Of a stretch of DNA of 64,000 nucleotides, positions 8,232-58,699 are shown piece after piece; position 1 is the first letter of the stretch; each line of letters opens with the position of its first letter. The DNA comes from Utricularia gibba (lineage: Eukaryota > Plantae > Magnoliophyta). Under the pieces are notes generated by a model that did no database searches, was not told the origin of the DNA, and saw nothing but the letters and a program-made list of their open reading frames with translations. The DNA lies in contig NEEC01000016.1 in the NCBI GenBank assembly GCA_002189035.1, positions 2,294,001-2,358,000 on the forward strand. Reading direction: 5' to 3'. The position numbers and the translations under genes are program-made.

Positions 8232-8465
8232 GAAATTGAGCGTGAGAGCCAAATGAATCGAAAGATTCTTGTTTGGTTCGGGAAGGGATTAGGGAAGTTT
8301 TAAAATAAGCACACAGATAATCTACTTTCATTAAGTAATTTGTTAGATAATCGAAAGCAGGGAATCTTGAATGCTATTTGAAATTGAGAAGAACTGCGTT
8401 GAACAATTGGAATACGTCTGGATTCCCTTACGTAAAGTGGAAACAGAAACAGATGAGTTTCGTGA
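8232..8465 (+). pseudogene. atpF: Plastid atpF group II intron 3' end plus start of exon 2 (NUPT)
   Basis: AGCGTGAGAGCCAAATGAATCGAAAGATTC..GTTTGGTTCGGGAAGGGAT intron motif, then TAAGT..TTAGATAATCGAAA.CAG..ATCTTGAAT exon 2 from 8332. Confidence 0.8.
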
Positions 8466-15739: not shown

Positions 15740-16005
15740 ACCACTTGTTACATTTCGCATTGAAATCTGATTTCGTTTACTAAACTTACTTACCACTACT
15801 AGTCCAAGTTTGGACTAAGACTTACTATTATTCCAAATTATAAATTTACTAAAACACTTAACAAGCACAAGCTCTTCGTGATCGACCCCGACATTCACTA
15901 TACAAGTTTTCTAAATTTGTATTTTTTGTAGATTAGGGACTTTAAATTTATTTGATATGGAAGTTTGCTTTTATTGCAACGACCATCTAAAATTTCCATT
16001 TATCA
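15740..16005 (+). repeat. 3' fragment of an Athila-like LTR ending TTTCCATTTATCA
   Basis: Reverse-complement homology to LTR ends at 46711 and 53592. Confidence 0.7.
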
Positions 16006-16298: not shown

Positions 16299-17471
16299 TG
16301 ATAAACGAAAATTTATGCAAATCATTAAAATTGCAAATTCACTTATCAAATTAATTTTATAAACCTAATTCACAACCAATCATACAAAAAATATGAACAT
16401 AATGGTTCAGGGTTGAACAGAAGAGCCACGTGTTTACCACGTAAAGGTTGATGCATGCTGGTTTTTGTAACGGTTGGAAATTAAGTCTAAGCTAGGACTA
16501 ATAGTTTCACAATAATATGCAGAAAGACAGTAAACGGGTAAAAGTAGATCTTTATTTAAAATCGATAAAGGTGATCTTTGGGACTTGTAGGGGCTGCATG
16601 CTCATCACTAAAATAATCTCATCTAAACTACAAATCAAGCATCCAACAAGAAAAAGTTTAGGTTTACCCAAACTCTTGTTTTCCTTTAATCTTTAGTCTA
16701 CCTTTAGTTAGGATTGCTTAGGATGAGTGTCACTACCTCTACCTCTTAAATCTATGCTGGTTTGTTAAAGAAGTGGTTGATTTATGACTAACAAGATTAA
16801 AAGAATGATTTGCATATTCTCCCTTTTAGTCCCAAGGCACCTCTAGTTGCTTAGTTATTTATACTAAAAGAAAATAAAACACTTTCATAACACAGCGTAA
16901 ACATCATCCATGTTTCAGAGTTGGACAACCAAAAATAAACAATAATAGAAACAAAAATCATAAGTAGTTTGTGGTGATAGCTAAAACTACTCCTGGATAG
17001 GAGTAGTACTCTTGAGAAGAAAATCTCCAAGTGTAGTTGAGTTCTTCATCGTCTTCCTTCTTCCTCATGGTTCTTCTACAATTTCCTAATAGATCCCTCT
17101 CTCCAAAATTGTTTGTCATGTTCTTCAAAGTGTGGAGATATTTTTTTTTTCCTCATTATGTCAAAAATCTACTTTTTCTTTCACATTGAAATTCGATGTC
17201 TTATTTTTTCAGCTTTTGTCCCTACCTTCTGTCACTTCATTGTTCTCTTTTGGCTCCTTGAGATTTAGGCTGCTAAAATGTGTTGTATTGCTCAAGAGAA
17301 TAATTAGGACAAAGATTGGAACTAAATGCATGTTTCACTCTCAATTAGGAATAAAATACGCAAATAGTGGTGCTAGTCACCAAAATATAGAAATACATAA
17401 TGAAATTTGAGTTTTATAACAAAATATTAATTATTTTTCAATCATTAAATACTCAAAAATATGTGTTATCA
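16299..17471 (-). mobile_element. Athila-like LTR, probably solo (about 1173 bp)
   Basis: TGATAAACG at 16299 and GTGTTATCA at 17471 match the family termini; TSD degenerate (GAAAG/AAAAA). Confidence 0.6.
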
Positions 17472-25699: not shown

Positions 25700-27520
25700 C
25701 TATTGTTATTTTTATTTTTATTTTTATTTTTATTTTCATTTTCATTTTTATGGCGTTAGTCTAAGTTAGGAGTAATTTAGTAGTAAGACGTTATTGTCAG
25801 GAGAATTTTGCGAACGGTTGAGGAATTTCCTTACGAGCATGGGATGTTTTCATGATGCACGAAATGCATGAATTTTGTTATGGCCAATTATGAACCCATG
25901 ATCATGTTTTCCCTTGATTCTTTTTGTGAGACAGCAACATGTTCAATGTAGTCAGATTGGTGCATTCAAGATTTTTTAAATAGATTGGCATGTGTTGATT
26001 TTTCATGAGGGACTGGTTGTCACGAAATTTGTAGATAGCAAAAACAAATGGGTCAAAAAAGCATCATCACCAGAAAAGTGATGAGACCCACGTCTTGAAA
26101 AGCAACACACAACAAAAGAGCGTATGTAGACGGCAGAGTAAAGAGCACAAGGGGGGTTATGAGAACAACTCAGAGGAGTAGAAGGGACCTCTGGAGGAAT
26201 AAAGAGGAGAGTGCATAGCCCACACTCACATACAAAGAGGGGAAGCAATAGTTTACCTGAGTCGAACTCTAAATTCTCCCTAGTCTCGATCTCTGTAGAA
26301 AGAAAAAAAAGAGGATGAAAAAAAAAAGAAGAAGAAGAAAAAAGTATAGCAGTGGCAATCAGCATTCTTGAGAGTTAAGCACATGCTATTTTCGCTCATT
26401 TAATCTTCGAATGCACCTTTCAGGATAAAATTGTCATGTATGCTTGAGTGACACCCTCACATGCACACTGGCACCCTACAATTCATGTGTTTTTAGCTGA
26501 ATGATAAGCATCTGCATCGCTCTATAGGAGATTCATCAACTATTTACCTCTTGTTAGTCTTAGTTAGGACTTGAGGACAAGTTTAGTGTCGTTGTAGCAT
26601 AATGTGATAACACATATTTTTGAGTGACTCAATGTATGGAATTTACTCATTTTGTGCTACAAAAATTATGCTTTATTGCCTAGTTCTATATTTTTGAACA
26701 TAAGTACCATAGTAGTGTCAATTTAATCTGCGATTTAGTCCCAACCTTCTAATAGTTTTATTTGAGTAATGCAGTGCAGGTTGCAACACAAATCCCTAAG
26801 AGCCGAATATGCACAGTGTAATGGCAGAAGATGAGTCCAAAAGCCTGAAAAGTGGTACACACAAAATCCAAGGAGAAAAAAAGGGGAGATTTTGGACAAA
26901 AGGAGAAAAAAGTTGGAGAGAGGGGTAGATCTTCCCTTGGAGACTCACAACAAATTTCTGGAGATTTTTCTGGAGGAAGAAGAAGGAGGGGAACGATGAA
27001 CTAGAAGAACAAAGCTTTTTCTTGAGAATTTATTTTCGTTCTTGACGTTTACTGTTACTAGCTAAGACTAGATATTGCTCGTTATTGTTTAGCTTTAAAG
27101 CAAGGATGTTGTTTAGGATATGCTATGAAAACATTTTCCTTTACCTTATCATGAGTGGCTAAGCACTTAGGGGGGTGCCTTGAGGTGAAAAGGGGAGAAA
27201 TATGCTAATCCGTCCTCAGACCTAATAAACCATAAGTCACACCATTTTCTTAACAAACCACGATAGATCCAGGAGGGGAAGTAGTGAAACCCAACTTAAC
27301 AACCATAATTAGAGGTAGACCAAATATTAGGGGGAAAAACAAGAATCCGGGTAGACCTAGATCTTGTGAGTTAGTTGTTTGATTTATGATTTATGTGAGC
27401 TTGTTTAGTGATAGGCATACATTCCCTAGGAGTCCCAAGGCATCACTCATTTCATTCCAGAAACTACCGAATTCCAAAACTTGTTGCTTTTCCTTACTGC
27501 ATTCCATCGTAGTTCTGTTT
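25700..27520 (+). mobile_element. Athila-like 3' internal region plus 3' LTR (family B, LTR from 26605), truncated
   Basis: 26010-27520 is colinear with 38180-39700; LTR start TGATAACACATATTTTTGAGT is defined by the solo copy at 48907. Confidence 0.8.
26588..26604 (+). other. tRNA-Asp 5'-end-like 17-mer at the PPT position
   Basis: GTCGTTGTAGCATAATG versus recalled plant tRNA-Asp(GTC) nt 1-17 GTCGTTGTAGTATAGTG (15/17); abuts the LTR TG. Confidence 0.7.
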
Positions 27521-28365
27521 TATTCCTAACTAAACAAATTTAGTCATATTTAGACATAAAAAAACCTAAAACATAGTGAGAAAATGACACTTAACATTTT
27601 CATACTATAAAAATAGGAAAATTTGCGTGTTATCACTAAGGTAACTTCTTCACAATATCAAATGTTGATGAAGAAGTCAAAGTTGATCTTAATGTGTTAA
27701 GTAGAGTCACTTCCTATCAAAGGGAGTGATTGCGCAACAAAGAAGTAACGTGGGCGTGAGGTGGCTTGTTCCATCCGAGCTAGAGTGATAGTTGGGCTAG
27801 ATTGAGCCTTTGTAGTAGTTGTTGTGGAGGCAATTGATGAGTAAGACTGACAACAACTTGCATCATGAGAAATGTGGGGAGAGGATGTAGAACTTTGTCT
27901 ATGTTCTAGAGGGTTATACTAAGTGTGTAAGACTAAAATCCTTGAAAAAGGATTGCATGAGTTGTTGTATGCTTCGATTCATATAGCAAGTTCTTGTATG
28001 TTGGATATTTATGAGCCTAGGAGGTTTCTCGTTTTGGGTTTTACTCGGCTATATCTGTCAATCAATTGTTTACTCATAAATCAGATCATAGATGCATGCA
28101 TATAAACAATCCCAAGTAGCATTGTGTTGTTTTGGATTACTATGCATCACTTATGAGGTGCGCTTTAGCATTTTTCAATACTTTTTTCACAATTTGTACT
28201 TGTTTGAGCATTGGTTTGTCATTTAAAGAATAGTGCTTTAGTTAGTTTCTACTCTTGTAGTAACAATCTTTCCTCAAAAAGCAAACAAACAAGTAGAGCA
28301 TTAGTTCCCACAAGTATGATGATGGAAAATTCATTGATTTGCAACCTGATCTTTTGGTTGTCAAT

Positions 28366-29320
28366 GAAGAAAATACGTAGAATCGAGGGATGCACAGGAA
28401 ATTAGCTTCAAAATGTAGCAATTGATGGAGCAAGAGCCATCATATTACGATGATTATGGCCCAAGTTATGTGCACAATGCACTATCACCCCCTCTCTCTT
28501 ATTCTAAGTACCGCCACCATTCCCTGTAGTTCACCTTCGAGGACAACCTATTGGCTGTGGACTTCTTCCATGGTTTCTATATTATTGATGTGGTATTTGT
28601 CCATATGGGTGAAAAATTAATTGGAGAAACATATTTTTATTGAGATATACCCATCGAATAGATTTCGCTTTGCCAAACATAGGTTGCAGATATGCAAAGC
28701 AATAGAAAACAGGAATGCTATAAGGCCATAGCTAATGAAGTTTTTTATGCACCTAGTAGCTCATATCACCATATTGTTCCAAGAGCAAGTTCTAACAATG
28801 AGGTGAGGGACATGTTTGACTTCTAAGTATTATTGTGCTTGAGGGGATTGCCTTTTTCTACTATTGTGAAGGAAATTAAAACCTTCATTAGAGGCTTGGA
28901 TCTTCCAAAAGAAAAGATTCATTTGATTGCATATTCTGAGGAACAAGCAATTGTCGAGTTATCAAGTCTTGGAGACTCCATAGCTTTTTCCTGCACCACA
29001 AGAGGAGCTAACATAAGAAGTTTAATGAATGTCCCTTGTGATTGACTATGTGTTTCTTCAAAGTCTCTGATTGTGGTTTCGTTATTGTGTGGAGGGAAGG
29101 TATTGCTCCTACACTGTGAATGAGAGGCTTACCATTCTCTCTAGGAAAGGATGATATAATACACTTGTTCAATGCTTTCACACTATTACAGGACTCGTGA
29201 ACTGGGAAAGAAGGCCAATTGAAGAAGCCTCTCCACTGCAGCAGACGCAAAAGAGGCATTAGCGAAGGATCCAATGACTCCATAGAGCTTTTCTCATCTC
29301 CAAAAGAGCAGCCAGCCATG
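28366..29320 (+). pseudogene. hnRNP F/H-like (qRRM) RNA-binding protein pseudogene with three qRRM units
   Basis: PPPFPVVHLRG...IDVVFVH..KQECYKAIANEV; LCLRGLPFS...LFPAPQEEL; MRGLPFSLGKDDII...RPIEEA..TAADAKEALAKDPMT..IELFSS; many stops and indels. Confidence 0.85.
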
Positions 29321-30049
29321 ATGCACCCCACTCATTCGTTCTCTTCTTTTATGCCTTTTGTGGTCGAAAAATAAACATTCATAAAGTATATGTTTATTGA
29401 AACTTAATTACATAATATATATTATATAAACACATTTAAATTCATATGCAATCAATTATATTCTCGTAAAATTACTTTTATTTTTCAAATATATATCAAA
29501 TTTTTTTAATGAGAATGGATTTTAAAAATTAATTTAATTTTATCAAAATATATGAGATGATAAATCTTTTTGAAAATTAATTTTTTATAAGTGGTTTTAC
29601 GATTAAATTTATAATTATACATGTTCTTTTATAAAAGATATAATTAATAATATTATAAATAATTGAATTATTTTAATATGAGTCTATTTAAATTAAAATA
29701 ATTGATGAAATATAAATTATTAAAAAAAATTCTCATTTAGTTAGATTGAAAAATAAATCAATTCTGTAATAATTATTTTTAAAAAAACATATATCAAATT
29801 AGAATTTTCATTTCCATGAGGAGGTGTGTGCATGTGCTTGTGATGTGGTGTTGATGTGTTGCGATGATGATAAGATGCGGATGCGGAACCAGACAACGTT
29901 CACAAAAACATTTGGAGGCCAAAAAAAGAAAACCTTGGTATAATTATTGCATTGCATACCGCGATGCTGAATGTGAACCGCCGAGGGTTACACATTATTA
30001 TATAACCCCACCAGAGCGACCCAATGCTTCTCTTTCGCTCTCCCCAAGT

Positions 30050-32696
30050 ATGGCGACGTCATTTGGAGCCTCCGGCGCTGCCATATCCACCGGCTTCAAC
30101 GCCGCCTCCAATTCGCTCTTTCTCGTTGACGGATATCGGGCCCTCCGTGCCTCTACCTCCGCCGTCAGGGCTGTCTCCGAGGTATCATTTGCTCTTCTAT
30201 TCACACTTTGTCGGATCGTAGATTACGATTTCCATTCATCCGCCAGCCTTTTCAAAGCATAAAAATCATGATTCTTCGCTGTTCGTCATCCAGATGGATT
30301 GGTATTTCATGAGTAATATAAAAGCCTGAGATTAATATTGCCTGTTCCAAATTGGAGTTCCTTGCTATTTACAGTACAATTGAGTTTTTTTTTTTTTTTT
30401 CTTATCAAGGCATGGGTATTTTCTTGCGCTAGTGGGGGGTTTCTTGTTATGGTTCTTAATCTGGGTGGTTGTTTGCACGTTTGCAGAACGTGAAATCAGG
30501 CACTTCAGTAGACCCGAAACGAAGTAAAGTCGAGATCATCAAGGAGAAGAGTAACTTCATAAGATATCCATTAAACGAGGACTTGCTCACTGATGCTCCC
30601 AACCTCTCTGATGACTCAACACAAGTGATCAAGTTCCATGGTAGCTATCAACAGTACAATAGAGATGAGCGCGGTTCAAGGTCATACTCGTTTATGCTTC
30701 GCACAAAGAACCCCTGTGGAAAGGTCCCAAACAGACTTTATTTGGTAATGGATGATCTAGCCGATGAGTGTGGGATTGGGACCCTTCGTTTGACAACTAG
30801 ACAGACATTCCAGCTTCATGGTGTTTTGAAGAAGAACCTTAAGACTGTAATGAGCACTATAATTAGAAATATGGGTTCTACTTTGGGCGCTTGTGGTGAT
30901 CTCAACAGGAATGTTCTGGCTCCAGCAGCCCCTTTCCAGAGAAAAGACTATTTATTTGCACAGGAAACTGCAGAGAATATTGCCGCATTATTAGCTCCCC
31001 AGTCAGGTTTTTACTATGATGTGTGGGTGGATGGAGAAAAATTTGTATCTGCAGAACCTTCTGAGGTTGTGGCAGCCCGGAATGATAATCTTCATGGTAC
31101 AAACTTTCCCGACTCCCCTGAGCCTATTTATGGAACTCAGTTCTTGCCGAGAAAGTTCAAAGTTGCGGTTACAGTGCCATCCGACAACTCAGTGGATCTT
31201 TTTACAAATGATATTGGTGTGGTTGTTGTGTCCGATCCAAATGGAGAGCCTCAGGGCTTCAATATCTATGTAAGTTTACTTGGTAAAATTATTAAGTCTT
31301 CGCGTTGTTTTGAAGTTGAACGTTGCAGGTTGGTGGTGGGATGGGAAGAACGCATAGGATGGAGAGCACTTTCCCTCGGTTGGCGGAACCACTGGGATAT
31401 GTGCCCAAGGAAGATATATTGTATGCAGTGAAGGCCATCGTTGTGACACAAAGAGAAAATGGTAGAAGAGATGACCGCAGATACAGTAGAATGAAATACT
31501 TGCTCAGCTCCTGGGGGATTGAAAAATTCAAAAGTGTGGTGGAACAGTACTATGGGAAGAAATTTGAACCTTGCCACGATTTACCCGAGTGGGAATTCAA
31601 AAGCTACTTGGGATGGCATGATCAGGTTCATCCTCCGGTTTCAGTCATGCTGACATGTGTGCATTAATTGAACAGATTAATTGTTTTGTAGGGCGATGGT
31701 GTGCTGTTCTGTGGTCTTCATGTTGATAATGGGCGGATCAAGGGTGCAATGAAGAAAACCTTAAGGGAAATAATTGAGAGGTATAATTTGAACGTGCGCA
31801 TAACTCCCAACCAAAACCTTGTCCTATGTGATATTCGGGAAGCATGGAAGCAGCCTATAACCACGGCTCTTGCTCAGTGTGGTCTGCTGGTAACACACTA
31901 TACAACTCACTTACGCCCTTATCATCCATTGTTTCATTGCTTACGAGTATTTAACCAGTTACACTTTTACTGAAAAGCAACCGGAGCATGTGGATCCTCT
32001 CAATATAACAGGAATGGCTTGCCCAGCATTGCCTCTTTGCCCCCTGGCAGTTGCGGAAGCCGAGCGTGGGGCACCGGACATCCTTAAACGCATTCGTGTG
32101 ATGTTTGAGAAAGTAAGGATCTCAGTCGTGATTTCAAATGGAACCCCCTGATGCAATATACACTAATGTGAAACTTTTGATAGGTTGGTCTCCAGCATAA
32201 CGAATCTGTGGTGGTAAGGGTGACGGGTTGCCCCAATGGCTGTGCTAGACCATACATGGCTGAGCTCGGGTTGGTTGGCTCCGGACCAAATGCTTATCAG
32301 GTAGGTGCATCTCCGCTTGAGTCTTACAACCGAATCACCGCGGGCTGATCACCATAGGGTGGGTCCATGTTTGTTTGTTTGTTTTCTAAAAGATTTGGGT
32401 TGGAGGGACACCCAACCAGACGTTACTAGCCAAGGTGTTGTACGACAAGGTGAAGATTCAAGATCTGGAGACAGTCCTGGAGCCCCTGTTCTACAACTGG
32501 AAATGGTTGCGGGTGTCAAATGAATCCTTTGGTGAATTCACAAACCGTGTGGTAAGCCAAGAGAAAAGGGGGTGTGTGCGTGGATAGAGGCAAGTTGTAG
32601 TTGACATTGTTGAGGTTTACTGATCATCAGGGCGCTGAAAAGCTTCTCGAGATGGTGGACAAATGGGAAGGGGTGTCGGCGGCATCATCCCCGTGA
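30050..32696 (+). CDS. SIR: Ferredoxin-dependent sulfite reductase, plastid-targeted; 8 exons: 30050-30181, 30487-31269, 31329-31625, 31692-31889, 31978-32112, 32184-32300, 32393-32551, 32631-32696 (628 aa)
   Basis: All introns GT-AG and phase 0; no internal stops; motifs [32 protein letters not shown]; siroheme/Fe-S ligands [10 protein letters not shown] and VTGCPNGC intact; Ser/Ala-rich transit peptide. Confidence 0.97.
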
Positions 32697-34371
32697 GGCC
32701 GTGGGGCGGCGGAGGAGGGCCTGGCCACATTCTCAGTGCTTTCTTCCCTTCTTGTTGTTGCTTTTGAAAAATATGGAGTACATTGTTTAGACGCCAAAAG
32801 ATCATTAATAAAAGATGGGTAAGGTTGCAACTACCAAGCCAACAGGGCAGCTTTCCCTTTCCTTGCTGTTTTCTGATGAGCGGATGGCAGCCCGTTCCAG
32901 TTTGAGGGAGTTCCGGAGCTCGTAGTAGATCTGGACGGAATCTGAAGGTCGCCTCCATGGAAGCGTTTTCCGAGCGAGTAGCATCCCCACAGCCTAAAAC
33001 ACAAATTAGAAATTTTTTTGTTCGAATTAATTAACCCGAGCCTTGATTGGAATAGCCTCCGAAATTTAACATAATTGTAAAATTAGTTTCTACCGTTTCA
33101 TTTTGTATCCTTACTGTTGCAATTAGTTTATTTGCAAATGTGACAAACTTAGTTCCTAAAAAAATAGTCTCCATTGTTTATTCAATTAGTATTCCATAAA
33201 TGATCCTCATTATTTGAAAAAATAGATGCAGACAGTGCCTTATTATTTACTGTTTTGACAGAATAGGCTCCCAATAAATATTATATATATGGTGTTTACC
33301 AGACAAACCTTGCTACGATGATCATCCCTTCAATTCAATTCGTAATCATCAAAACAGAATTTCGCGTGTGAAATGAAAAGTATTTGTTCATTTTTGTGTT
33401 GAAAGTCGTTTTCATATTTCACCAACACAACATACATGCTGGTCGCCTGATCCATTCGTATACCAAAACACTCATAAAACCAATGGAAACGGATTCAATA
33501 CAACATTAATGTTCGTGGTGACTTTCTCTTCATGCATTAATTAGAGGACTTTTTTCCCATAAAATAAGCAACAAAGACAACCCTCACGCTTGCACTGGGT
33601 TAAAATTTCACAAAAAGCTCAAGACTGTAAAAGTGAGAACTGACTCTTCTCATCTAAAATAATCATCAGAAGATCATCATGTCAACTCCTGATGTTACAG
33701 TAATCGTTGCATCTATCCGCACATGTATACAAGATGCTTAACTTTCGGCAATTTGGGCCAGTAAGTGCTTCCTTTTCACTGTCTTTGAGTGTATAAAAAA
33801 GAAGAAGAAACATATAGATCTGGGGAAAGTCTTCGATGCGAAAAAACAACTTGAATCATGGAAAAAAATGCTGTCTCCCTGTCCATACGTTTGTCATTTA
33901 GTCAAATAAACGTATTATATGGAATCCAATTCAATAGTCATCATCATCATCTTCTTCTTCTTGAACTACGTGCCTATATTAAATTGCTCAAAGAATTCCA
34001 GAACTTTTTGAATTTTTGAACCACTCAAATCATGTATTTACATGTTGCTATGAGTAGAAATCTGATAGGGGATTCGTTGCAGATTTCAAACATATGAATT
34101 AGCACTTGGCTGATTTGCATGATCAAGATTTGATTGTTTGGTAGATTTCTAAGTGATAAATCAAAACAAAGATTTTTAATATGAAAACTAATGTGACGGA
34201 AAACCACAAAGTCAGGGGAGCTCATTAGAGAAAATGATTCTACTAAGAAGAATGAGGAAGGCTATAAGGTTTGCAACAAATGCAAAGTGTTTCTCTCTTG
34301 AATTGAACTTCTATTCATAGAGAAGCTCTAGTCGATCGATTCTGAGAGGGGTAGATACTTTAATACAAAAG

Positions 34372-35658
34372 TGATGACATACATTTTCTTATTATTTAAT
34401 AATACAAAATTATGATATTTGGCTATGGTTTAGGTTAGGTTTGTGTAGTTTTTCATATTTTATATGTTGTTTAGTTTATTTTCGTGTTTATGTTAAAAAG
34501 TGCACTAAATCCATTGATTTAGTCCACCTTTTTTTATTGACTTTTAATTAAATCTAGCAGAAGGATTAGCAGCAAATCGGGCTGAAAGATATATGAATTA
34601 AGTTGAAGGAGGTAAAATTTCTAAAGGGAGAGAAAAAGCATTGTTCTGCCGCCTGTAGTATGTAAGGCAAAGAACAGTACTGGTGTCAATAACAATGTAT
34701 TGGAGTAAAGAAGATAAGATATTTTTGGAAGATTGAGAGAAGAAAAAGAGTACAGTTTCAACAGCGAAGAACATAGAGAGAGGCTTGAGAACGAACGAAA
34801 GGGGGTGAGGAAGACGATTTTTCTTGAAGAAAAACCTCAATGTGAAGAACAAGCTTAAGAACTCAGTTTGGTGCTATTGCTCTAGCTGTGAATAGCAGCA
34901 AAAGAAGAACATAACTATTTCGTCTTATTTTTCGTTTGCTAGATATTTAGTTTCTGTGACAATTTATCTTACAATATTTAAGATATTTCCATTAGTTTAT
35001 GATTATGAAACCTTGCTTTACTTACTAAATATGATTGGCTATCATTTCTCGGTAGACCTAAGGGAGGGGGAGGGGAATGAATAGCTTCATAAATTAGATG
35101 CTTGAGTTAATGGTAAACCAACAAATTAAGGTGAAGAGAATAGGTATTGGTCCAAGGTAGAATCAATAGAGTTGGATAGACCTGTTTCTACATATTTTAC
35201 ACATGGGTAAACCTAAGTATTATATGGATGATGATATTAGAGGTTATGTTAACCAAGAACACGAGAAATAACCTAGGTAGATTTAGGTTATTTGAAGTTG
35301 TAATCATAGAAATATTGTAGATTAAATTAGGGATCTTAGTACCATATCACCTACACTACCTTGAGGCATCATAATGTTACATTATGCACAAAACCTATAT
35401 TTATTACCTTTTACATTGTTATTTGATTTTATTTACTAAATTTGCGTACCGCTTTTAGTTTGAGCCTAGACTAAGAGTATTGTTTATTTTGTGAACCTGC
35501 ATCTAAGAAAACACACAGCAAGCACTTGCTTCTTAATCGATCTCAAAATTTCACTATACATCTTGTGTTTAATTTCTATCTTTTGAAAAGTAGAGATTAC
35601 AAATTTATTTAATAAGAAAATTCTATTTTTACAATGATTTTGGAATTTTCATTTATCA
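34372..35658 (+). repeat. Athila-like 5' LTR followed by a degenerate tRNA-Asp-type PBS (35668-35681)
   Basis: TGATGACATAC...TTTTCATTTATCA, then AAAAGTTTT TGGTCCACTGCGGG. Confidence 0.7.
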
Positions 35659-36859
35659 AAAAGTTTTTGGTCCACTGCGGGTTTCTTCCATTGCCCGAAA
35701 TTTGATCTTTGAGAGACTCGAAGAAACTACCGTCTGAAATGAGTCCCCCACCTCTACGATTTCAGAGTCAGCTCTGACTCAATTAGGGATTCTCGGTCAG
35801 ACTCGTAATAAGTATTGACCTGATTTCCTTTTTTCCCACAACATTGATTCTATGTGACTCATTATCAACTACTCTCCTTTGGCACTCACACCAGTTCCGA
35901 TTGTTATTCGATCCGGAACACCTCACACTCCGACACGTAAATCTTCTCAACCCCAAGTCTCAAAGAAAAAAAAAGGTTAAGACTTGTGTCATCAAACCCA
36001 ATTTAAAAAAGCAAAGAGGAAGTTAGGCTTATCTTTGCCATTTTCTACTGAATTATAAGGATAACCTATTTTCTATTTATTTTTGTAGTTGATGAAATGG
36101 GAAGATCACAAGCCCTACTGGCTGCCGCAAAAGCTCGCTTGGATACTCAAATGCAACAAGTGTGTGAATGGGGCCCTTGTGAGGCCTCTGAGGTTGGTTC
36201 TCCTCTTCTATTCTTTTCCCGATTCTAAATTCCATTGCTGATTTCAATTTTTGGTCTTTAGAGCCCTCTTTCATTTGAGATCAATCCTAACAGCTGCGGC
36301 CCTTATGTGAAGAGTAGCTTATGTTGTGTCAAAATTGATTATATTTGTGGTATTTTTAGTCTTAGGATAGGGAATTAGGTGAGTTAGAATAGGAAGAAGT
36401 GTTGAAAGTAGAGTTACTAAATTTATTTTAGGGGCCTGTTTTGATTTGATCCATTTCTTGGGGTGAACTTACTTTTCATCTAAACCTAGGACTATCTAGC
36501 CCATTTGGGCTGGACTGTGTATTTTAACCATTCTGTGCAGCAATTATTAGTCTAGGGGCAAATAGACAATGTGCGTTTGCATGCACAAAGAGATAATATT
36601 ACATGATAGGAAACACAGAACGAGAAGTGTTCCCCACCCCACAACATGCAAGAGGGGCATGCATGGTCGAGAAGAGAGAGAAGGGAGATTTTTTACATTG
36701 AAAAGCCCTTTTTTCAGTGAGTTTGAGCAGATTTCAGGAAGAAGATGAAGAAAGAATTGTTCCAGCGTGACAATGGAACTTACCTCCAATGTCTAGAACC
36801 TAGCAAAAACTGAAACCTATCTATTGAGAAGGAGATAACGGAAGCAATTTAAGAGTGAT

Positions 36860-38023
36860 TGTTAAGTGTCATTTTTTTACTATTTCTTTGGTTGTTTTTA
36901 TGCTTAATTGTAATTATAAATGTCCAATTAGGAGTCTATAATATGAGATTTAGATTTTTATCTAGTTTAGGGTAATTATCCTAAATCTTGTATTTTATCT
37001 ATTAATTTTACTAGTTTTAATTGAGTTTTTCTAGAGGCGCACACGTGGTAGGAAGTGAGAAAAAGAGGGCATCAGATGGTGACAAATTGGATCTTCCCGA
37101 GCTGACATTCCCTTGATTTTCAGAAGACTGCAAACGCCTAATCATGAGCCTTGACGTGCGGAAAACGGGAGTCTTTGACAGGCGGTATCATTAGCGTACC
37201 AATGTGAGACGTTGCTTGCAAGTCATCCCAAGTTCAACAGAATCACAGGAACACGAAATCTCAGACTTTCATTGAAGTTCCATTCTAATCAGACATTAGG
37301 GGAGTAGTTAGTTTAGTTTTAGACTTTTGTTTCTCTCTCTAGAGGATTTTTCCTCTATCTTCTCTCTAGAATTTTGTTTTCCTTTCCTTCGTTTCTGGGT
37401 GGGAACACCCCTAGTTCTATGTTCCGTTAGCTTATCTTCATCTCTTCTTTGAATCCGAACGGGTTTCGTATGTCTTCACGCGATTATGTTGTAGTCTTTC
37501 TGTAATAGTCCCCTTATTCAAGGTTCATGGTTAGCTGATCACTACCGCGGATTTTGGAGAGGAGCAAGGTGAAAAGCACCAACTCATGCCCTCTTAGCAG
37601 GAGGAAGAAAATGTTTTGTCTGTGGCCGTACCTGAGGATCAATGGACAGGTAGTGACCTCGTATCTGAACTCATTGGGCCATTGGCAACACTTGGGCACA
37701 CGCATGCAATTCGGCCGTGAGGGTATGCTGGCAGCACCTCTTATTCTCACGTTCGTCCAAGGAACATTTACTTTATTTAAGGTTCATCGCTTACGTTTAT
37801 TTCATTTGTCTATTCAAAACCCCCCTTATTCCCTTACTCAAGCTTCATCATCAACGTTTCTCACACTTTCTACTTTCAAAACCGTTTACAAATCATCACA
37901 GTTGTATTCGGGGTACCTCACCTTTCACATAAAAACAACTCCCTGTATTCGACACCCGTACTACGCTTTTGTGTTTTACGTGTTTTAAAATATGAAAATT
38001 TGTTGTGGAAACGACACGCATCA
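36860..38023 (+). mobile_element. Athila-like solo LTR (family A, 1164 bp) inserted in another Athila internal region
   Basis: TGTTAAGTGTC...GCATCA; perfect TSD GTGAT. Confidence 0.92.
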
Positions 38024-38740
38024 GTGATACTAGAACTACCTCCATCATCCAGAACAACAACAAAACTATGAACTTTCACAGGGAAGCTTGAGAACCATCT
38101 TATTAGAGTAGAATAAGATGACACACTCGCAATAACTAATTTTGAGGATTGAAAGAACTTTTTATTTTTTGCACAAAATCTGCAGATAGCAAAAACAAAG
38201 GGGTCAGAAAAGCATCATCACTAGAAAAGTGATGAGACCCACGTCTCGAAAAGCAACACACAACAAAAGAGCGTGTGTAGATGGCAGAGCAAAGAGCACA
38301 AGGAGGTTATGAGAACAACTCAAAGCAGTAGAAGGGACCCTTGGAGGAATAAGGAGGAGAGTGCATCGCCCACACTCACATACAAAAAGGGGAAGCAATA
38401 GTTACCTGAGTTGAACTCTAAATTTTCCCTGGGCTCGATCTCTATAGAAAAAAAGAAAGAAAAAGAATGAAAAAAAAATAGAAGAGAAAGAGGAAAAATA
38501 GCAGTGACAACCAGCATTCTTCGAAGGTAAGCATATGCTATTCTTGCTAATTTAATCTTCGAATGCATCTTTCAAGATGAAATTGTCATGTATGCTTGAG
38601 TGACACCCTCACATGCACACTGGCACCCCTTCAATTTATGCATTTTGAGCTGAATGTTAAGCATTCTCATTGCTACGTAGGGGATCCATTAACTATTTAT
38701 CTTCTGTTAGTCTTAGTTAGGACTTGAGGACAAGTCTAGT

Positions 38741-38757
38741 GTCATTGTAGCATAATG
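38741..38757 (+). other. Second tRNA-Asp 5'-end-like 17-mer at the PPT position
   Basis: GTCATTGTAGCATAATG (14/17; the extra difference is a CpG-type transition); abuts LTR start at 38758. Confidence 0.65.
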
Positions 38758-39878
38758 TGATAACACATATTTTTGAGTGATGGAGTGCATGGAAATTACT
38801 CATATTGTGCTACAAAAAAACAGATTTTACTGCCCGGTTCTATATTTTTGCGCAAAGTACCGTAGTTATGCTATTTTAGTCTTAGTTGGGACTAAATCAA
38901 TATAGGTCGCAACACAAATCCCAAGGAGCCGAATATGAACAGTGTGGTGGTAGAGGATGAGGCAGAAGTCTGAAAATAAGTACACACAAAATCCAAGGAA
39001 GAAGAAAATGGGAGATTTTGGACAAAAAGGGGACAAGATGGAGAGAGAAGGCAGATCTCCCCCATTGAAGACTCTCGACATTTTTCCTGGAGAAGGTTTT
39101 TCTGGGGAGGAAGAAGGAGGAAGATAAACAGGAACGAAGCTGAAGTTTCAAGACTATTTTCTATTTTCGAAGAATATTACTCTTAGTTAAGAGTAGCTAG
39201 CGACGTTTCTAGTTTTTGTTGACATTTCACATTACTTGCTTGTTTGCTTTCTGGTATTCGACTGTGAAATGAGTGCACTGTGGATGATGTTTTCTTTTCT
39301 ATTTTTGTTTACCTTAAGCATGAGTAGCTAAGCACTTAGGAGGTGCCTTCGGGTGAAAAGGGGGATGTGCTAATGAATCTTTAGACCTAATCAACCATAA
39401 GTCACGACACTTCCTTAACAAACCAGGATAAATTCAGGAGGGGGAAGTAGTGAAACCCAGCTTAACAACCTTAATTAGAGGTAGACCAAAGATTAGGGGA
39501 AACAAAGAGTGTGGGTAGACCTAGACCTTGTGAGTTAGTTGTATGATTTATGGTTTGTGTAAGCGTGTTTAGTGATAAACATACATCTCCTAGGAATCCC
39601 AAGACATCACCCATTTCATTCCAGAAACAACCGAGCTCCAAAACTTATTACTTTTCTTTACTGTATTCTGTTGTAGTTCTACCTTAGTCCTAGTTAAGAC
39701 CAATTCTACCAACTTGACACTGATTTCATGCATTGACGCTCACATGACAAGCACCTGCTCTTAGTGTTCGACCCTAACCACTATTTTCATAATTGTGTTA
39801 TACTTGAATGTGTGTTAGGTTATATATTTATGTGATAGAAAAAATTGCAATTTAACGACGTTGCTAATTTTTCGTTGT
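38758..39878 (+). repeat. Athila-like LTR (family B)
   Basis: Colinear with solo LTR 48907-50017; 3' terminus damaged. Confidence 0.8.
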
Positions 39879-39889
39879 TGATAAATGTC

Positions 39890-41165
39890 TCGAATTGATG
39901 GAAGAAGAACATGTGAAGGCAATGGGATATTTGGAGCCACAAAGGAAGAAATATGGTCCCTATTCGAACACCTACAATCCTAGATGGAGGGATCATCCAA
40001 CTTTCAGATGGAGTAACAATGATAATTCTTACAAGAGTGAAAGTTCATCTGCTAGATAGCAAGGATTTCAGCAAAATTTCCAGGAGCAGCATCAACGTTC
40101 TTATCAAGCTCCACCATTTTGCAAGTCAAACAAGCAGATGCAATAGCAACTTCAGCCTTCAAACCAGAATAATTCTAGAGGAAATTCTGGAAATTCATTG
40201 GAGGATATTTTGAAGACTTTCATGACCCAATCAATCAAGAATCAAGTTGAGAACCAACAAGCTATCAAGAATCTAGAAATGCAAGTTATGCCTATAGAAA
40301 TTTTAGCTATCAAGAATCAAGCTGAGAACCAACAAGACAGACAACTTTCACTTGTCCATTTGGGACTTATACCTATAGAAGATTGTCTTTTGGATTGTGC
40401 AACGCCCCTGCTACCTTCCAAAGATGTATGACCAACGTCTTCTCAAACTTTGGTGAGGATTTTATTGAAATTTTTATGGACGATTTTAAAGTGTATGGAG
40501 AGGATTATGAGTCATGTTTAGACCATTTGGATCAAGTATTGCAAAAATGTGTTGAAAAAAAATCTTGTTCTTAATTCTGAAAAATGTCATTTTATGGTTG
40601 ATCATGGAATTGTGCTTGGCCATGTTATTTCTAGGTAAGGTATTGAGGTAGACAAAGCAAAAATCGAAATTATGACTGAATTACCGTATCCAATTGATGC
40701 TAAAGGTGTGAGATCATTTCTGGGGTATGTCGGTTTTTACAAGAGATTTATTCAGACTTTTTTTAAGATTGCTTTGCCTCTTAGTAGACTTTTGCATAAT
40801 GATGTAGAATTTTTTTTTTGATGATTCATGCAAAAATGCTTTAAATTGTTTGAAAGAGGCTGTGACCACTGCTCCTGTGATACAACCACCAAACTGGAGG
40901 TATGATTTCGAAATTATGTGTGATGCTAGTAGTCATGCTGTAGGAGCAGTTTTAGGACAGAAAATTGAAAGAAAACATCATGTTATTTCTTATGCCTCTA
41001 AAACTTTAGATGAAACCCAGAAAAATTACATTGTGATAGAAAGAGAATTTTTGGCTGTCATTTTTGCTTTGGAGAAATTCCGTTCCTATCTTTTAGGGAG
41101 CAAAGTGGTGGTCTACACAGACCATTCAATGGTAAAACACTTGATAGAGAAGAATGAAACCAAAC
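39890..41165 (+). pseudogene. Athila-like gag, RT and RNase H fragments with deletions
   Basis: PYSNTYNPRWRDHPTF; FGLCNAPATFQRCM..IFMDDF; FEIMCDASSHAVGAVLGQ; VYTDHS. Confidence 0.92.
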
Positions 41166-41234
41166 CTAATAATACCATGGTGCTTTCCTTCCTAGTGATG
41201 AGGCCCAGAAACATAAGAGATAATATTTCGAAAA

Positions 41235-42043
41235 GGGAAAAATCGTTTTTTAAGACACAATATTTTACCTATTTTCATTTTAAAGTCAAACACTTTAATT
41301 TATACAAAATAAAGTCAATAAGTTTATCAATAAATTCAATTTATGGCATATCGGTTAAAAACTATTTTAAAAATTTTTAAAATTTGAGATAAATATTTTT
41401 AAAGAGAATTAAAATTTAATATACATTTTTAAAAAATATTGTAAATTTTTAAAAATTATGAAAAAAATACTAAAAAATAATGAAAAATTATTACATTTTT
41501 TTCTAGTTTCATTTCTTATAATTTCCTACAAATAGTATTATAGAAATAATAATTCTATACACAAAACCTTCTTTATTTCTTCGTATTTCAATTTTAATTA
41601 AAGACATTTATGCAAATTCAAGTATCAAAATGAAAGGCTTGTTAGTATGTGTGATCCAGTTGGTGTAATCGAAGAAGAAACATACGAGGATCACGTAGTA
41701 CTTTAGAGAAAGGATAAGAAAGCATTATCTATGTTCAGGTATTATTATTAAGATGTTTCAATCTCAAAAAAAATTGGATGATGGAAGTATCATAGAAAAA
41801 ATATTAAAAATTGAGAAAAATAATTTTTAAAAATTTAAAATATTTTTAAAAATATATATTGAATTTTAGTTCTATTTAAAAATATATATCTCAAATTATA
41901 AAAATTTTTAAAATTTTTTTTGGCCGAAGTACGATAAATTGAGTTTATTTATAAACTTGTTGACTGAATTTTGCACAAGTTAAAGTATTTGACTTTAAAA
42001 TAAAAATGACTAAAACATTGTGACTTAAAAAATGATTTTTCCC
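41235..42043. mobile_element. Non-autonomous Mutator-like element (809 bp, about 230-bp TIRs)
   Basis: GGGAAAAATC...GATTTTTCCC long imperfect TIRs; perfect 9-bp TSD TTTCGAAAA (41226-41234 and 42044-42052). Confidence 0.93.
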
Positions 42044-45000: not shown

Positions 45001-47737
45001 GTTTCCCAATGCTTTCAGCATTTTCTCTTTTTCGGTTTGCTCATCTTTCAGCTTCAGCCTTCTTGGAAAAGGAGGCTGTGTCACCTTCATCTTGACAAGT
45101 TCTAGAAGTACTTAAAATTCATCCTCACTTTGCTCAACAATTTCGTACTCTTCTGTTTCGTTCTCCTTAGTCTCAGTCTGGACTAGTTCTCGTCCAGGCT
45201 TCTCTTTTCCACTCCTAAGTGTCATGGCGCTGATGTTTGGTCATCCACTAGAATTTGGATTTGGCTTGGGTTAAGATGGTAAGCTCCCTTTCTGTTTCAG
45301 GTCTCCAAGCTCTGCTGCCAATTGACTCACTTGAACCTCCAAATTCCGGATTGCTTGTTGATTTTTAGCTTGATTTTTAATTGATTGCGCCATGAATGTC
45401 TTCAACATTTCTTCCAACGAATTTCTAGAATTCACTCCAGCATTGCCTTGATTTGGGACTTGGAATGGCTACTGGTTCTGCTGATTTTGCCTTCGAAATG
45501 GAGGCACCTGATATGATTTTTGCTCCTGAAAATTTTGCTGCCCCATGGTTAAGCTCTCCCCTTTGTAAGAGTTTTCGTTGTTGCTCCAACGAAAATTTGA
45601 ATGATCCCTCCAGCTTGGGTTGTAAGTATTTGAATATGGATCATATTTCTTCCTCTATTGAGGCTCCAAATATCCCATATCCTTGACATGCTCTTCTTCA
45701 AATAAATCTGGGCACTTACCAGCGGCATGCCCTATTCTATGATAGTTTCTGCATGGCATATTCTTAGCCTAGAATAAGAACAACTCCTTCATCATTTCAG
45801 ACATAGCAGCAACATTTTCCGTGAGTTCATTCTCTAAAACCCTGGGCTTGCTCTCCACTTCATACACCCTCTTGTTTGAGACTTGCTTCCTGATAATATG
45901 TCTCGAATGCTCAGCTAACTCCTCAAGCAAGAAAAGAGCTTCGATTGGTGTCTTCTTCCTTAAAAATCCTCCCGCCGCCGAATCTACCATGGCTCGGTTA
46001 GTGCATAGTAATCCATCAAAGAAATACTTGACCAAAGCATTGGTCTGAAAACCATGGTGTGGGCAGGAACCCAAAAGATGATTAAATCTCTCCCAATATT
46101 AGTGCAAGGATTCTCCACTCATTTGTTCAACATCACTAATTTCTTTTCTTATCCCTTCAGCCTTGGAAGCTGGAAAATATTTGCTCAAAAACACTTTCTA
46201 CATTCCAGCCCAATCGGTTATGCTTTCAAGCCTTAATGAGTTGAACCACGTTTTGGCTCCTTCTTCCAAAGTAAGCTGGAAGGCTCTCAAACAAATGGAA
46301 TCTCCAGTCATTCCAGCTCCTTTGAATGATGTGCATACCGCTGTCACATTATCTAGATGCTCATGAAGGTTCTCTCCAATTTTTCCATAAAACTTGGGCA
46401 AAAACATGATCATCGCCGGTTTCAGCTCGTTTGCTCCATCCTCTGGAAATTTGATGCATAGACCCCTATAAGTATGACCAACAGCATCTAATTCGTTCAA
46501 GGTCTTCTTAGGTTCAGCAGTTTTGAAATTGCTATTAGTGTCGGGTGGGGCTGCCTCAATCTGCTCACTTCCTTAACTCTGACCCTGTTCTTGCTAATAG
46601 CTCTCTCAATTTCTAGAATGAAAGTGAGATTACCTGCACCAGAAGAACATACATACTTAAACTAAAGACACAAAACAATTAACCATCACTCCCCGGCAAC
46701 GACGCCAATTTGATAAATGGAAATTTTAGCATATCGTTGCAATAAAAGCAAACTTCCGTATCAAATAAATTTATAGTCCCTTATATAAACAAAATAAAAA
46801 TTTAGAAAACTTGCATAGTGGATGTCAGGGTCGATCACGAAGAGCTTGTGCTTGCTAAGTGTTTTTGTAAATGCATAATTCAGGCTAACAATAAGTCTTA
46901 GTCTATGCTCGGACCAACAATGGTAAACAAGTGCGGTAAACAAGATCAGTAAACAATATCAGGTTTCAATGCAAAAGGTAACAAGTACTAGTTCTAACTC
47001 AAAATAACACGAAGATGCCTTAAGGACCTGTAGGTGGTGTGATGCTAAATTGCCTAATTCAATTTACCATGTTCCTACACTCACAACTTCAAATAACCTA
47101 AGACTACCTAGGTCATTCATCATATTTTTAGCTAAGCTAGTCCCCAATATCGTAACCAACATTGCAATTAGGTCTGCCCGCATGCAAAGCATATAGAACT
47201 AGGTCTACCCGGTTCTACTGGTTCTACTCCGGACTAACACCTACTGCTCTCATCTTGATTTGTTGGTCTACCTCTAAATCAAGCATTTAAGTTGTGAAGC
47301 TACTTATTTCCCTCCTTAGGTCTACCCACGGATTGATAGAAACAAGATTTAAGAAACAAACATAAAATTTATTATTAAACCTAAGCACACACCACCATAC
47401 TTCACCTTAAGGCATCCCTAAGGCTTTAGCTACTTATACTTGGAAAATAAAACATGATTTCATTCAGATAATATGGAAAAAATGACAGAAACATTGTAAG
47501 CAAGTCAGGTACAAAAAACTCGAAACCTTCAGAAAACGGAAAGGAAATAAAGATTGTTCTGCTGCCCGGTTGCTACTGTTCACGGCCTAGACTGGGCTCT
47601 GGTGCTGCTCTTGAAGATGAGGGCCTTCTTCTCCTCTTTTAGTTGGTATTTTTCGCATTGGGGGAGAAGCCCCTTGTGTGCGTTTTGTGCTCCTCTCGTG
47701 TGTCTGGCTGTTGTCTTGAGCATGACCTTCCTTGAGA
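42062..47737 (-). mobile_element. Athila-like element, 5' half (LTR 46711-~47737, PBS, gag, protease, RT, RNase H), truncated and interrupted
   Basis: PBS TGGCGTCGTTGCCGGGG (46691-46707, tRNA-Asp type); gag FLPKFYG..ENLHEHL (46198-46500); protease AMVDLGASINV (44605-45090); RT DHYPLPFIDQML, FYCFLDGYS; RNase H HHVISYASKTLD. Confidence 0.92.
43158..44598 (-). repeat. Probable Ty1/copia (Angela-like) LTR inserted in Athila pol, with flanking deletion
   Basis: Minus-strand TGTTCTAG...ACGCAACA termini; homologous to 51105-52400; no TSD; family assignment from recalled motifs only. Confidence 0.55.
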
Positions 47738-47989: not shown

Positions 47990-50830
47990 GAGGATAGCTT
48001 CTACCAACTCAAGCATGACGTCAATGCTTCCTCTTATGTGAACAAATCAAGTCTTTACTATCAATATGGATGCCTCTAGAATAGGCCTCGAGGTAGTGCT
48101 AATGCATGAGGGATGTATGATAGTATATGCCTCTTGACAGCTCAAGTACTATGAACATAACTATCTAGTGCACAATTTGCAACTTGCAATAGTCATGCTC
48201 GTGGTCAAGTTATGGCAACAATATTTTATGGAACATATGCGAGCTCTATATTGATCATCAAATTCTCAAGTACTATTTACACAAAAGGAGTTGAACTTGT
48301 GCCAATGAAGATGGATATAGCTTCTTAAGAACTATGAATTGGAGGTTGAAGCACCATCCCATGAAAGCAAACATGGTAATAGATGACCTTAGAAAAAGGT
48401 CTATTGCCACATAAGGAGAAAAACAAAAAAAAGAGGCAGATCATATGCAAAGACTGGAGGAATTACTAGCAATCGTCTTCCTTGAGCTTGCCATTGTGGC
48501 GAGAAAATGAAATGTCAAGGAATGAGAAGACTCACGATTGGAACAAGAATATTGGAGCATAGAGAGAAGGGACCCTTCGAAATACATAACAATTACACTA
48601 TTGTTAGGAACAACTTAATCTAGGTATCAACAAACTGTGAGCTCAAGCTAGAACATCCTAGGGAGGCACATGCCTTGTGACTAACCACTCACCCTAGAAG
48701 TACTAACATATATAGGGACCTTCGACAAGGTAACTGATAGGATGGCATGGAGTGAGAGATGTCCAAATAAGTGGCAAGATGCTATATCTATCAATAGGCC
48801 AAGACTGACCCGATGCATTACTATAGCCATGAGAGATCCTCATGTGGAATTGGGAGCATATACTTTGACTTCATAACAACATTATCCAAGACCAAGAGCA
48901 TCATATTGATTACACATATTTTTGAGTAATTGAGTACATGGAAATTACTCATATTGTACTACAAAAATCAAGTTTTACTGTCTAGTTCTATATTTTTGCG
49001 CATAGCACTGTAGTTATGATATTTTAGTCTTAGTAACCTTCTAATAGTTTTCTTTGAGCAATGCAGCACATGTCAACAACACAAATTCTAAGGAGTCGAA
49101 TATAAACAGTGTAGTGGTAGAAGATAAGTCAAAAGTCTGAAAAGGAGTACACAAAAAATCCAAGGAAGAAGAAAAGGAGGATTTTGGACAAAAAGGGGGG
49201 CAAGATGGAGAGAGAAAAAGATCTCCCCCATTGGAGACTGACGACACAACTTTTTGGAGAATTTTTCTTGGGGGGGAAGAAGGAGGAAGATGAACATGAA
49301 CGAAGCTGATGTTTGAAGACTCTTTTCTATTTCTAAGGAATCTTACTCTTAGCTAAGAGTAGCTAGCGACATTTTCTAGCTTTCTGTTGAACTTTGAAAT
49401 CCTCTGCTTGTTTATTTTCTGGTAGTTGAGTGTAAGATGAATACCATGTGGATGATGTTTTCTTTTCTATTTTCATTTATCTTAAGCATGTGTGGCTAAG
49501 TACTTAGGGGTGCCTTGGGGTGAAAGGGGGAGAAATGTGCTTTCTTAACAAACCAAGATAAATCCAGAGAGGGAAGTAGTGAAACCCAGCTTAACAACCC
49601 TAATTAGAGGTAGACCAAAGATTAGGGGAAAAACAAGAGTCCGGGTAGACCTAGATCTTGTGTGTTAGTTGTTTGATTTATGGTTTGTGTGAGTTTGTTT
49701 AGTGATAAGCATACATCCCTAAGAGTCACAAGGCATCACCCATTTCATCTTAGAAACAACCGAGTTCCAAAGCTTGATAGTTTTCTTTATTGTATTCTAT
49801 CGTAGTTCTGCCTTAGTCCTAGTTAGGACCAATTCTACCAACGTGACATTGATTTCATGCATTGACTTTCACATAGCAAGCACCCAGCTCCTTGTGTTCG
49901 ACCCTAGTCTACTATGCTCATATTTTTCATATGATTTGATGTGAATTGGGTTTATAAATGTTATTTGATAGGAGAAATTTACAAATTAACGACTTTGCAC
50001 AAATTTTTCGTTTATCACATATGCTACCTATCCAAGCAAATTGGAACATGAGATAGCCAGCTCAAGTCTACATTGGGAAATCATGCATTTGAACGAGGTA
50101 CAAACTTCAATCATGTTGGATAGGGACTTGTATTTCACCACAAAATTCTTAGCAACATTAAAAAAGGACTTGGGTACTAAGTTGCTTGTCAGCACAACAT
50201 TTCCTCCATAGACCGATGGGCAATTTGAGCAAACCATTTGCACCCTAGAGGATCAGGTGTGAGCTTGCACACTAGAGTATCAAGACAAGTAGGAGGAACA
50301 TGTCTACATAGTGGAATTCATGTACAACTATAGCCACCAGGTGAGCTTGAGGATGGCCCCCTTTGAAGCATTACATGGATGATGGTTCTACACCCCATTG
50401 CATTTGAGGTGAGGGAGCACTCGATGCTAGGGTTGGAGTTGGTGCATCAAACTAGGATTACAAGCTGCACAAAATAGACAAATGAAGTGGGTGGATACGT
50501 GGAGGCAACTTTTGTAGCTTGAGAAGGGGGCCTAGGTGTATCTCAAGTTTTCATCATGGAAGGGGATCACACGGAAGCTTACCTTAGGGAAGTTGTGTCA
50601 CGATACATTGACCCCTATGAAATCATCGAACAAATTGAAGAGGCGGCCTATTAGCTAGCATTACCCACATGGATGCAAGGCATGCACAACATCTTCGAAT
50701 TACAGTTGAGAAAATATGTGACTATGCTTGAAAATGTTTGTGGTGAGAGTTCACATTAAGAGATAATTTGACTTATCAAGTGCAAACACTCAACATCTTC
50801 GAATGCCATGTGAGCATGCTCGAGCAAAGA
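47990..50830 (+). pseudogene. Highly decayed Tekay/Del chromovirus RNase H-integrase region, split by a solo LTR
   Basis: Degenerate D-A-S-R-I-G-L, YASRQLK, IDHQILKY..QKELN, integrase HHCC and D-R-D core on both sides of 48907-50017. Confidence 0.75.
48907..50017 (+). mobile_element. Athila-like solo LTR (family B, 1111 bp)
   Basis: TGATTACAC...TTTATCA; perfect TSD CATAT. Confidence 0.92.
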
Positions 50831-58256: not shown

Positions 58257-58451
58257 GATCGAGTGGATATTTATTTATTTTAAATTTATATTAACGCTCA
58301 ACCCTTAGGAGCAATTTAGATCGAGTGCATATTCATTTATTATAAATTTTAATTCACAATTGATCCTTAGGAGCACTTTAGATCGAGTGCATACTCATTT
58401 ATTTTAAATCTTAATTAGCGTTCAATCCCTAGGAGCAATTTAGATCGAGTA
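58257..58451. repeat. 62-bp tandem repeat, three full units plus a partial one (GATCGAGTGCATA...CCTTAGGAGCAATTTA)
   Basis: GATCGAGT recurs at 58257, 58319, 58381, 58443. Confidence 0.9.
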
Positions 58452-58699
58452 CACACGACAATGCCACATGGGCGTGGTTTACACTTGTAGATACACGCAA
58501 CAGCATGACAACGCCACACGGGTGTGGTTTATGCGTAAACCACGCTCGTGTGCACAGGCAGCAGCCACAAGGCCATATAGCCGTAGTTTACATATAAACC
58601 ATGCCTGTATGCACACGTGCTACTGCATGTGTCTACGGGCGTAAACCACGTCCGTGTGGCCTTGTGGTGCTGCTGCGTATGCACACGGGCGTGGTTCAC

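Follow-up and report, generated by a model that had tools for sequence, protein, structure and literature searches.

A tRNA-Asp 5'-like sequence at the polypurine tract position of a putative Athila-type retrotransposon family in Utricularia gibba

In long terminal repeat (LTR) retrotransposons, the polypurine tract (PPT) is described as the primer of the plus strand or as a supporting feature for annotation (PMC7197481, PMC12789967, PMC13570524). Among Athila elements (ATHILAfinder preprint, 10.64898/2026.03.20.713144; PMC6317226), the LTRs are long and bounded by TGATAA...TATCA, target site duplications (TSDs) measure 5 bp, a conserved core precedes the 3' LTR, the primer binding site (PBS) is of the tRNA-Asp/Asn type and the RNase H is of the Ty3 type. 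The retrotransposon family considered here, termed family B, was found in a 64,000-nucleotide (nt) stretch of the Utricularia gibba genome (GenBank assembly GCA_002189035.1, contig NEEC01000016.1, positions 2,294,001 to 2,358,000 of the forward strand; hereafter, the window) and resembles Athila in LTR ends and length, TSD, core and RNase H type; a PBS of the Asp/Asn type is seen in its sister family. The junction between PPT and 3' LTR is conserved in 97% of Brassicaceae Athila (ATHILAfinder preprint), whereas family B carries at this position a sequence of the same length that resembles the 5' end of tRNA-Asp.

Other described systems approach this arrangement from different directions. In half-tRNA priming, reported for copia, Ty5, Osser, Bryco, Bianca and the fungal Helenus (PMC6317226, PMC10886601, PMC5371799), a 5' tRNA piece likewise supplies the 3'-OH, but these are Ty1/copia elements in which a piece cut in the anticodon arm starts the minus strand at the PBS, whereas the family-B piece would be 14-17 nt long and would serve the plus strand of a Ty3/gypsy element. 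Half-tRNA elements carry a complementary site after the 5' LTR; the family-B motif lies before the 3' LTR and is tRNA-sense in the element RNA. Neumann et al. (PMC6317226) distinguish three kinds of primer, each of which serves the minus strand, with half-tRNA priming in Ty1/copia lineages only. In the bipartite PBS of Ty3 (PMC5371799), the primer tRNA, D arm included, also contacts the element 3' end, but the sites involved are tRNA-complementary in the RNA, serve minus-strand initiation and coexist with a PPT, whereas family-B RNA is tRNA-sense and only its minus-strand DNA could bind the tRNA. Lastly, small-RNA-derived sequences have become fixed in Helenus, Ajax and Cassandra (PMC10886601), but as promoter-like whole genes within the LTR of elements that keep PBS and PPT, whereas the family-B motif is 17 nt long, lies outside the LTR and takes the place of the PPT; neither ARAGORN nor Rfam detects a tRNA in the window. 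A literature search whose coverage left out most subscription journals returned no report of plus-strand priming by a tRNA.

Self-comparison of the window reveals three related LTR families, named A, B and C, with family B studied through four LTRs. The junctions of interest, in window coordinates, are the following.

26588..26604, plus strand: copy 1 of the 17-mer resembling the tRNA-Asp 5' end, located where a PPT would stand (15/17 identical; 13/14 over nt 1-14)
38741..38757, plus strand: copy 2 of the 17-mer, likewise located where a PPT would stand (14/17; 12/14 over nt 1-14)
26570..26581, plus strand: conserved CTTGAGGACAAG core of Athila-type 3' junctions, copy 1, 23 nt before the LTR
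38723..38734, plus strand: conserved CTTGAGGACAAG core, copy 2, 23 nt before the LTR
14881..14916, minus strand: for comparison, canonical family-A junction of hairpin, G-run PPT and LTR, with a spacing also of 23 nt

Both 17-mers start 6 nt 3' of TTGAGGACAAG and abut TGATAACACATATTTTTGAG, the start of the LTR, so that the motif begins at tRNA nt 1 and stops at the LTR. The identities refer to a published plant tRNA-Asp 5' end, which may not be the host's own sequence and which appears in print as a Nicotiana benthamiana forward primer (PMC6521008) and in soybean reads of 23/24 nt (PMC3519564). The G-rich PPT that precedes the 3' LTR in Athila is absent from both copies, which have a longest G-run of 1, no GG and 9/17 purines. 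The match can be aligned in two ways: ungapped over tRNA nt 1-17, or over nt 1-14 (13/14) followed by two extra bases and by GTGATAA set against GTGGTAA at tRNA nt 15-21 (6/7). Every mismatch is compatible with G-U or G-T pairing, a weak point in favor of tRNA pairing given that 13 of the 17 positions would be. A first-pass annotation of this DNA had placed the two 17-mers and the canonical junction at 14881 on the minus strand, had fixed the LTR start by means of the solo copy at 48907 with its TSD and had read the motif as tRNA-Asp-like rather than as a second PBS; positions and scores were reproduced, the solo LTR spans 48907-50017 with CATAT on both sides, and the reading of the motif holds, the sequence being tRNA-Asp-like above chance, located at the PPT position and not a second PBS. 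A remnant of an RNA polymerase III promoter or of a short interspersed nuclear element was also considered, and was ruled out by the absence of a tRNA fold and by a run of five T residues 12 nt inside the LTR. Judged from the sequence, the PPT is replaced at constant length by what appears to be the start of tRNA-Asp, and the junction is a real and unusual one, present in at least two separate insertions of a putative Athila-type family.

The likeness is improbable as a product of chance. At window composition, the probability of at least 15/17 matches is 1e-7 per site, with 0.012 such sites expected over both window strands; it rises to 1.3e-6 when the first two bases, shared with canonical junctions, are left out, and to 8e-4 for the D-arm part alone (nt 8-17). 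Even when any window of any tRNA is admitted, which we roughly put at ~40,000 comparisons, p stays below 0.01. For comparison, metagenome contigs were scanned for the upstream core, neither PPT nor motif being required, which yielded 117 loci from 6 of the 64 parts of the collection, and all 117 score 6-11/17 against the tRNA motif. Spacing was counted on 78 of these loci, those with less than 45% GC (guanine plus cytosine) and an LTR-like start, the other 39 being excluded; a few families account for many of the 78, which are hence not independent. The distance from core to LTR is 21-25 nt in 73 of them, as compared with 23 nt in both family-B copies, and a G-run of at least 2 occurs within the last 10 nt in 74. 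Scans for the motif returned 9, 3 and 36 loci in viral contigs, none of which proved plant-like or window-like on inspection, and 0 and 0 loci in prokaryote genomes, while an RNase H query against viral contigs gave 14 pattern matches and no confirmed case. Short tracts interrupted by pyrimidines (GGGGTTG or GGGGTCG) stand directly before the LTR in several Athila-type loci of the comparison set (L034, L053, L066, L072, L081, L083, L084, L087, L089, L104 and L115), and on this evidence the PPT composition of Athila-type junctions is looser than usually stated.

The relationship between the two motif-bearing copies can be traced through the family-B sequences of the window.

26021..26587, plus strand: 3' internal non-coding region, copy 1, 87% identical to copy 2, with purine tracts at 26297-26344
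38172..38740, plus strand: 3' internal non-coding region, copy 2, where homology to copy 1 begins abruptly
26605..27528, plus strand: family-B LTR copy 1 (B1), 3' part missing
38758..39876, plus strand: family-B LTR copy 2 (B2), last ~5 nt lost, joined to mid-gag
39902..41330, plus strand: broken gag, reverse transcriptase (RT) and RNase H remnants behind B2, Ty3/gypsy type
48907..50017, plus strand: family-B solo LTR (B3), TSD CATAT, sister to B2
16299..17471, minus strand: family-B solo LTR (B4), the most diverged, flanks agreeing at 3/5 positions

All four LTRs begin with TGAT, as in Athila, and B3 and B4 finish with TTTATCA; a 5-bp TSD is likewise present as CATAT at both ends of B3, with agreement at 3/5 positions for B4. 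The gag, RT and RNase H remnants follow B2 in that order, match solely Ty3 in PDB and, judged by their adjacency to B2, probably belong to family B. The label of Athila-type, which we regard as provisional, rests on the junction features. Homology between the two copies starts at 26021 and 38172 and stays within the element. The region upstream of the LTR is 87% identical between copies (Kimura two-parameter distance 0.14), as against 75% (0.31) for the LTR, which also shows large indels (Fisher p 1e-8). In a tree of the four LTRs, B2 groups with B3 to the exclusion of B1 with a bootstrap of 100, on 43 informative sites versus 18 and 17 for the alternatives, and in the first 150 alignment columns B3 has 15 differences from B2 and 29 from B1. 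An LTR distance about twice the upstream distance, together with the grouping of B2 and B3, points to divergence through replication and rules out a single local DNA duplication, the very case that the first-pass annotation had named as fatal to its reading. On the most economical reading, the motif is older than the split between B1 and B2, and B3, with its precise left end and TSD, integrated from the motif-bearing clade, a lineage that probably kept replicating.

The identity of the primer tRNA is suggested by a related family.

46690..46707, minus strand: for comparison, tRNA-Asp/Asn-type PBS, 3 nt (AAT) after a family-C LTR end

This is the sole clear PBS in the window. The U5 region of family B is 74% like that of family C and the gag-RT-RNase H remnants after B2 are 52-77% like those of C, a resemblance that makes an Asp PBS likely for family B as well. 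Published Athila PBSs are of the tRNA-Asp type and are separated from the LTR by an AT-rich spacer of 3-6 nt, which is ATT in 56% of Brassicaceae Athila (ATHILAfinder preprint). The first-pass annotation had used the PBS of the window to check the acceptor stem of the primer; the PBS is there, but it belongs to family C and not to family B. Behind B2, a deletion removed the last bases of the LTR and any PBS, and the resulting arrangement at 39872-39902 runs internal-LTR-internal, with B2 fused to mid-gag. AACGA(C), the complement of the central part of the PBS, occurs in U5 ends of both B and C (46711-46740 and 53591-53620 on the minus strand, 15975-16005 and 39855-39865 on the plus strand) and likely forms a stem between U5 and PBS.

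With a primer of this kind, a two-step history may be proposed, in which the motif was captured by a template switch onto the primer tRNA and the tRNA-Asp 5' end, trimmed by RNase H, then came to prime the plus strand; we advance it tentatively, as having a little less than an even chance of being correct. The minus-strand DNA, having just copied the LTR start and paused at the PPT/U3 cut, would pair with the D-loop of the tRNA, GTGATAA of the element meeting GTGGTAA at tRNA nt 15-21, would copy on to the tRNA 5' end and would return to the element RNA at a shared GT. Microhomology is found at both ends of such a switch (6/7 at entry and the shared GT at return), and TGATAA opens 28 of the 78 comparison LTRs, the LTR start itself resembling the tRNA D-loop. 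The first-pass annotation had held that the tRNA sense of the motif rules out read-through of the primer, and simple read-through is indeed excluded, but a template switch gives the same orientation.

The use of the captured motif would follow from the geometry of the primer. Once the tRNA 3' end binds the PBS, the 5' strand of its acceptor stem is unpaired, and it would be tethered to the same DNA. The captured motif would render the minus-strand DNA complementary to this strand, and the tRNA could anneal to that DNA while tethered or in the form of a free 5' fragment; cleavage by RNase H ~13-14 nt from the tRNA 5' end would leave a 3'-OH, and synthesis would begin with a 3-nt spacer, ATG, ahead of the TG of the LTR, a counterpart to the AAT spacer that precedes the PBS. 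A primer of 13-14 nt would end where the clean tRNA match ends, and the polymerase and RNase H sites of Ty3 RT lie ~13 bp apart (PMC5371799). Pairing energies were computed with RNA parameters as a proxy, the 24-nt published tRNA-Asp read standing for the tRNA; out of 6396 window tiles, the two motif sites pair most stably with the tRNA 17-mer (-25.9 and -24.1 kcal/mol), as compared with -8.5 kcal/mol for the canonical junction and a tile mean of -6.2. The fuller picture, a family without a PPT in which one tRNA-Asp primes both strands, by its 3' end at the PBS and by its freed 5' end at the captured site, is conceivable, though we would give it somewhat less than an even chance. The specific primer favored in the first-pass annotation, a 16-18-nt 5' tRNA-derived fragment (tRF) cut where the match ends, is weakened, for published tRNA-Asp 5' fragments are longer, measuring 23-24 nt in soybean (PMC3519564), being enriched among tRF-5D of 19-26 nt, a size range set by study design (PMC5389709), or measuring 31 nt (PMC11962134), and RNase T2 in vitro gave only long tRNA-Asp fragments (PMC6344867); with a match whose end is ambiguous, a ready-made fragment of that size is not the most economical primer.

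Several observations weigh against priming by tRNA-Asp. The mismatches at positions 11 and 15 are common to both copies and were hence fixed before the copies split, and the motif differs between them at 1/17 positions, indistinguishable from the flank rate of 12.6%, so that selection on tRNA pairing is unsupported. The signal uniting B2 and B3 is strongest in columns 300-750, and the first 300 columns give 7 sites for B2+B3 and 8 for B1+B2, a weakness near the junction that leaves room for LTR swapping; the sequence upstream of B3 is gone, so its parent may have carried a PPT. Just two motif junctions are seen, within a 64-kb window, and the 3' end of their match is ambiguous (nt 17, or nt 14 plus a 3-nt spacer), which makes a D-loop fragment unnecessary. 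In the metagenome collection, a strict search for core plus motif returned 0 loci, so the plants sampled there do not commonly carry the variant, and no PBS stands behind any family-B LTR in the window. The placing of the cut borrows from retroviral RTs, which can take up position at the 5' end of an RNA and cleave at the distance between polymerase and RNase H sites. At position 6 the window PBS reads T and the published Athila PBS C (ATHILAfinder preprint), which softens the acceptor-stem argument, and Ty3 RT does not recognise the PPT of HIV (PMC5371799), which suggests that new primers are poorly accepted.

The shared mismatches, the lack of excess conservation, the weak tree signal near the junction and the restriction to two copies would all fit a scar, that is, a tRNA piece left by a template-switch accident that primes nothing, the elements being rescued in trans by plus-strand strong-stop DNA from a co-packaged, PPT-bearing relative, or surviving as a few copies with LTR swapping. 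Rescue would be needed in each cycle, however, across a U3 divergence of 0.41, and neither the retention of the normal 23-nt spacing nor the proximity of B3 to B2 even in the first 150 columns is expected of a functionless scar, which we consider unlikely, if still a serious contender. Similarly doubtful is a surrogate PPT, in which the motif derives from tRNA but priming falls to the copy of it within the RNA of the element itself, which escapes RNase H and is placed by the hairpin, the tRNA having no further role. The conserved hairpin spacing agrees with this, as do the tolerance of Athila-type PPTs for pyrimidines, with a longest G-run of at most 2 in 18 of the 78 comparison junctions, and the occurrence of AGCAT immediately before the G-run in some relatives, and the shared mismatches would need no explanation; RNase H resistance is nevertheless unexpected of a tract with so few purines and no GG, and tRNA identity at 13/14 positions has outlived the split of the lineage.

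An origin unconnected with tRNA is improbable. The motif would then be a decayed PPT, or would combine a 7-mer taken from the PBS or complementary to U5 with a D-arm likeness due to chance, and it is true that GTCGTTG also occurs within the window PBS, that the initial GT and some of the spacer also belong to canonical junctions, that the length is that of a normal junction and that the motif can pair with the LTR start in a weak hairpin. Against this stand the probability of the D-arm part given above and a null model of decay, in which 900,000 trials from 41 canonical junction variants reached 15/17 in 2 cases and 14/17 in 21; moreover, the nearest canonical variant aligns to the motif with a negative score, pairing between motif and U5 amounts to just -6 to -12.5 kcal/mol, and the fold-back of the junction onto the LTR start is no better than shuffles (z -0.43 and -0.31). 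A reversed element, with the LTR running the opposite way and the motif serving a 5' tRNA fragment as its minus-strand PBS, in the manner of half-tRNA-primed copia, is already close to refuted, for although the inverted-repeat LTR ends (TGATAA...TTATCA) make the geometry symmetrical and minus strands primed by tRNA fragments are known (PMC6317226, PMC10886601, PMC5371799), the far end of the family-B LTR is homologous to family-C U5 ends, one of them followed by the PBS, the upstream core is of the type found before PPTs, and gag, RT and RNase H lie behind B2 on the plus strand.

Other features of the window touch on these elements less directly. A-rich purine tracts lie ~260 nt before the LTR in both copies (26297-26344 and 38446-38498) and could represent an upstream plus-strand start; priming there would not, by our reasoning, yield the observed LTR start. 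The window is nuclear DNA of a eudicot, rich in decayed retrotransposons; between the motif-bearing copies, a sulfite reductase (ferredoxin) gene is recognized by Pfam at 29855-33000 on the plus strand, its best relatives being 87% identical, with Coffea, Catharanthus and Paulownia among the top named. A group II intron match in Rfam (8244-8331, plus strand, 57.8 bits) is probably an organelle-derived fragment. On the minus strand, at 6177-7199 and 58529-60659, lie transposon remnants with a BED finger and with a Myb/SANT domain, presumably hAT-like and Harbinger-like, respectively; a palindrome of ~200 nt spans 58495-58707 and a short tandem repeat 58222-58456.

In the reviews consulted (PMC12789967, PMC5371799, PMC7197481), LTR elements and retroviruses are all taken to prime their plus strand from a PPT. 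If a lineage did multiply with the 5' end of a tRNA standing where the PPT should be, it would be a natural exception, exemplifying either a new primer or the fact that the tract can be lost. Athila6 is reported to be silenced by 5' tRFs (PMC5605234), and, if the proposal is true, 5' tRNA sequence would here act in favor of the transposon, in the opposite sense to that silencing role. Families of this kind would escape annotators seeded on the PPT junction, and, if the proposal holds, the same capture should be expected in other plants, as the LTR start common in Athila is similar to the D-loop of the primer tRNA.

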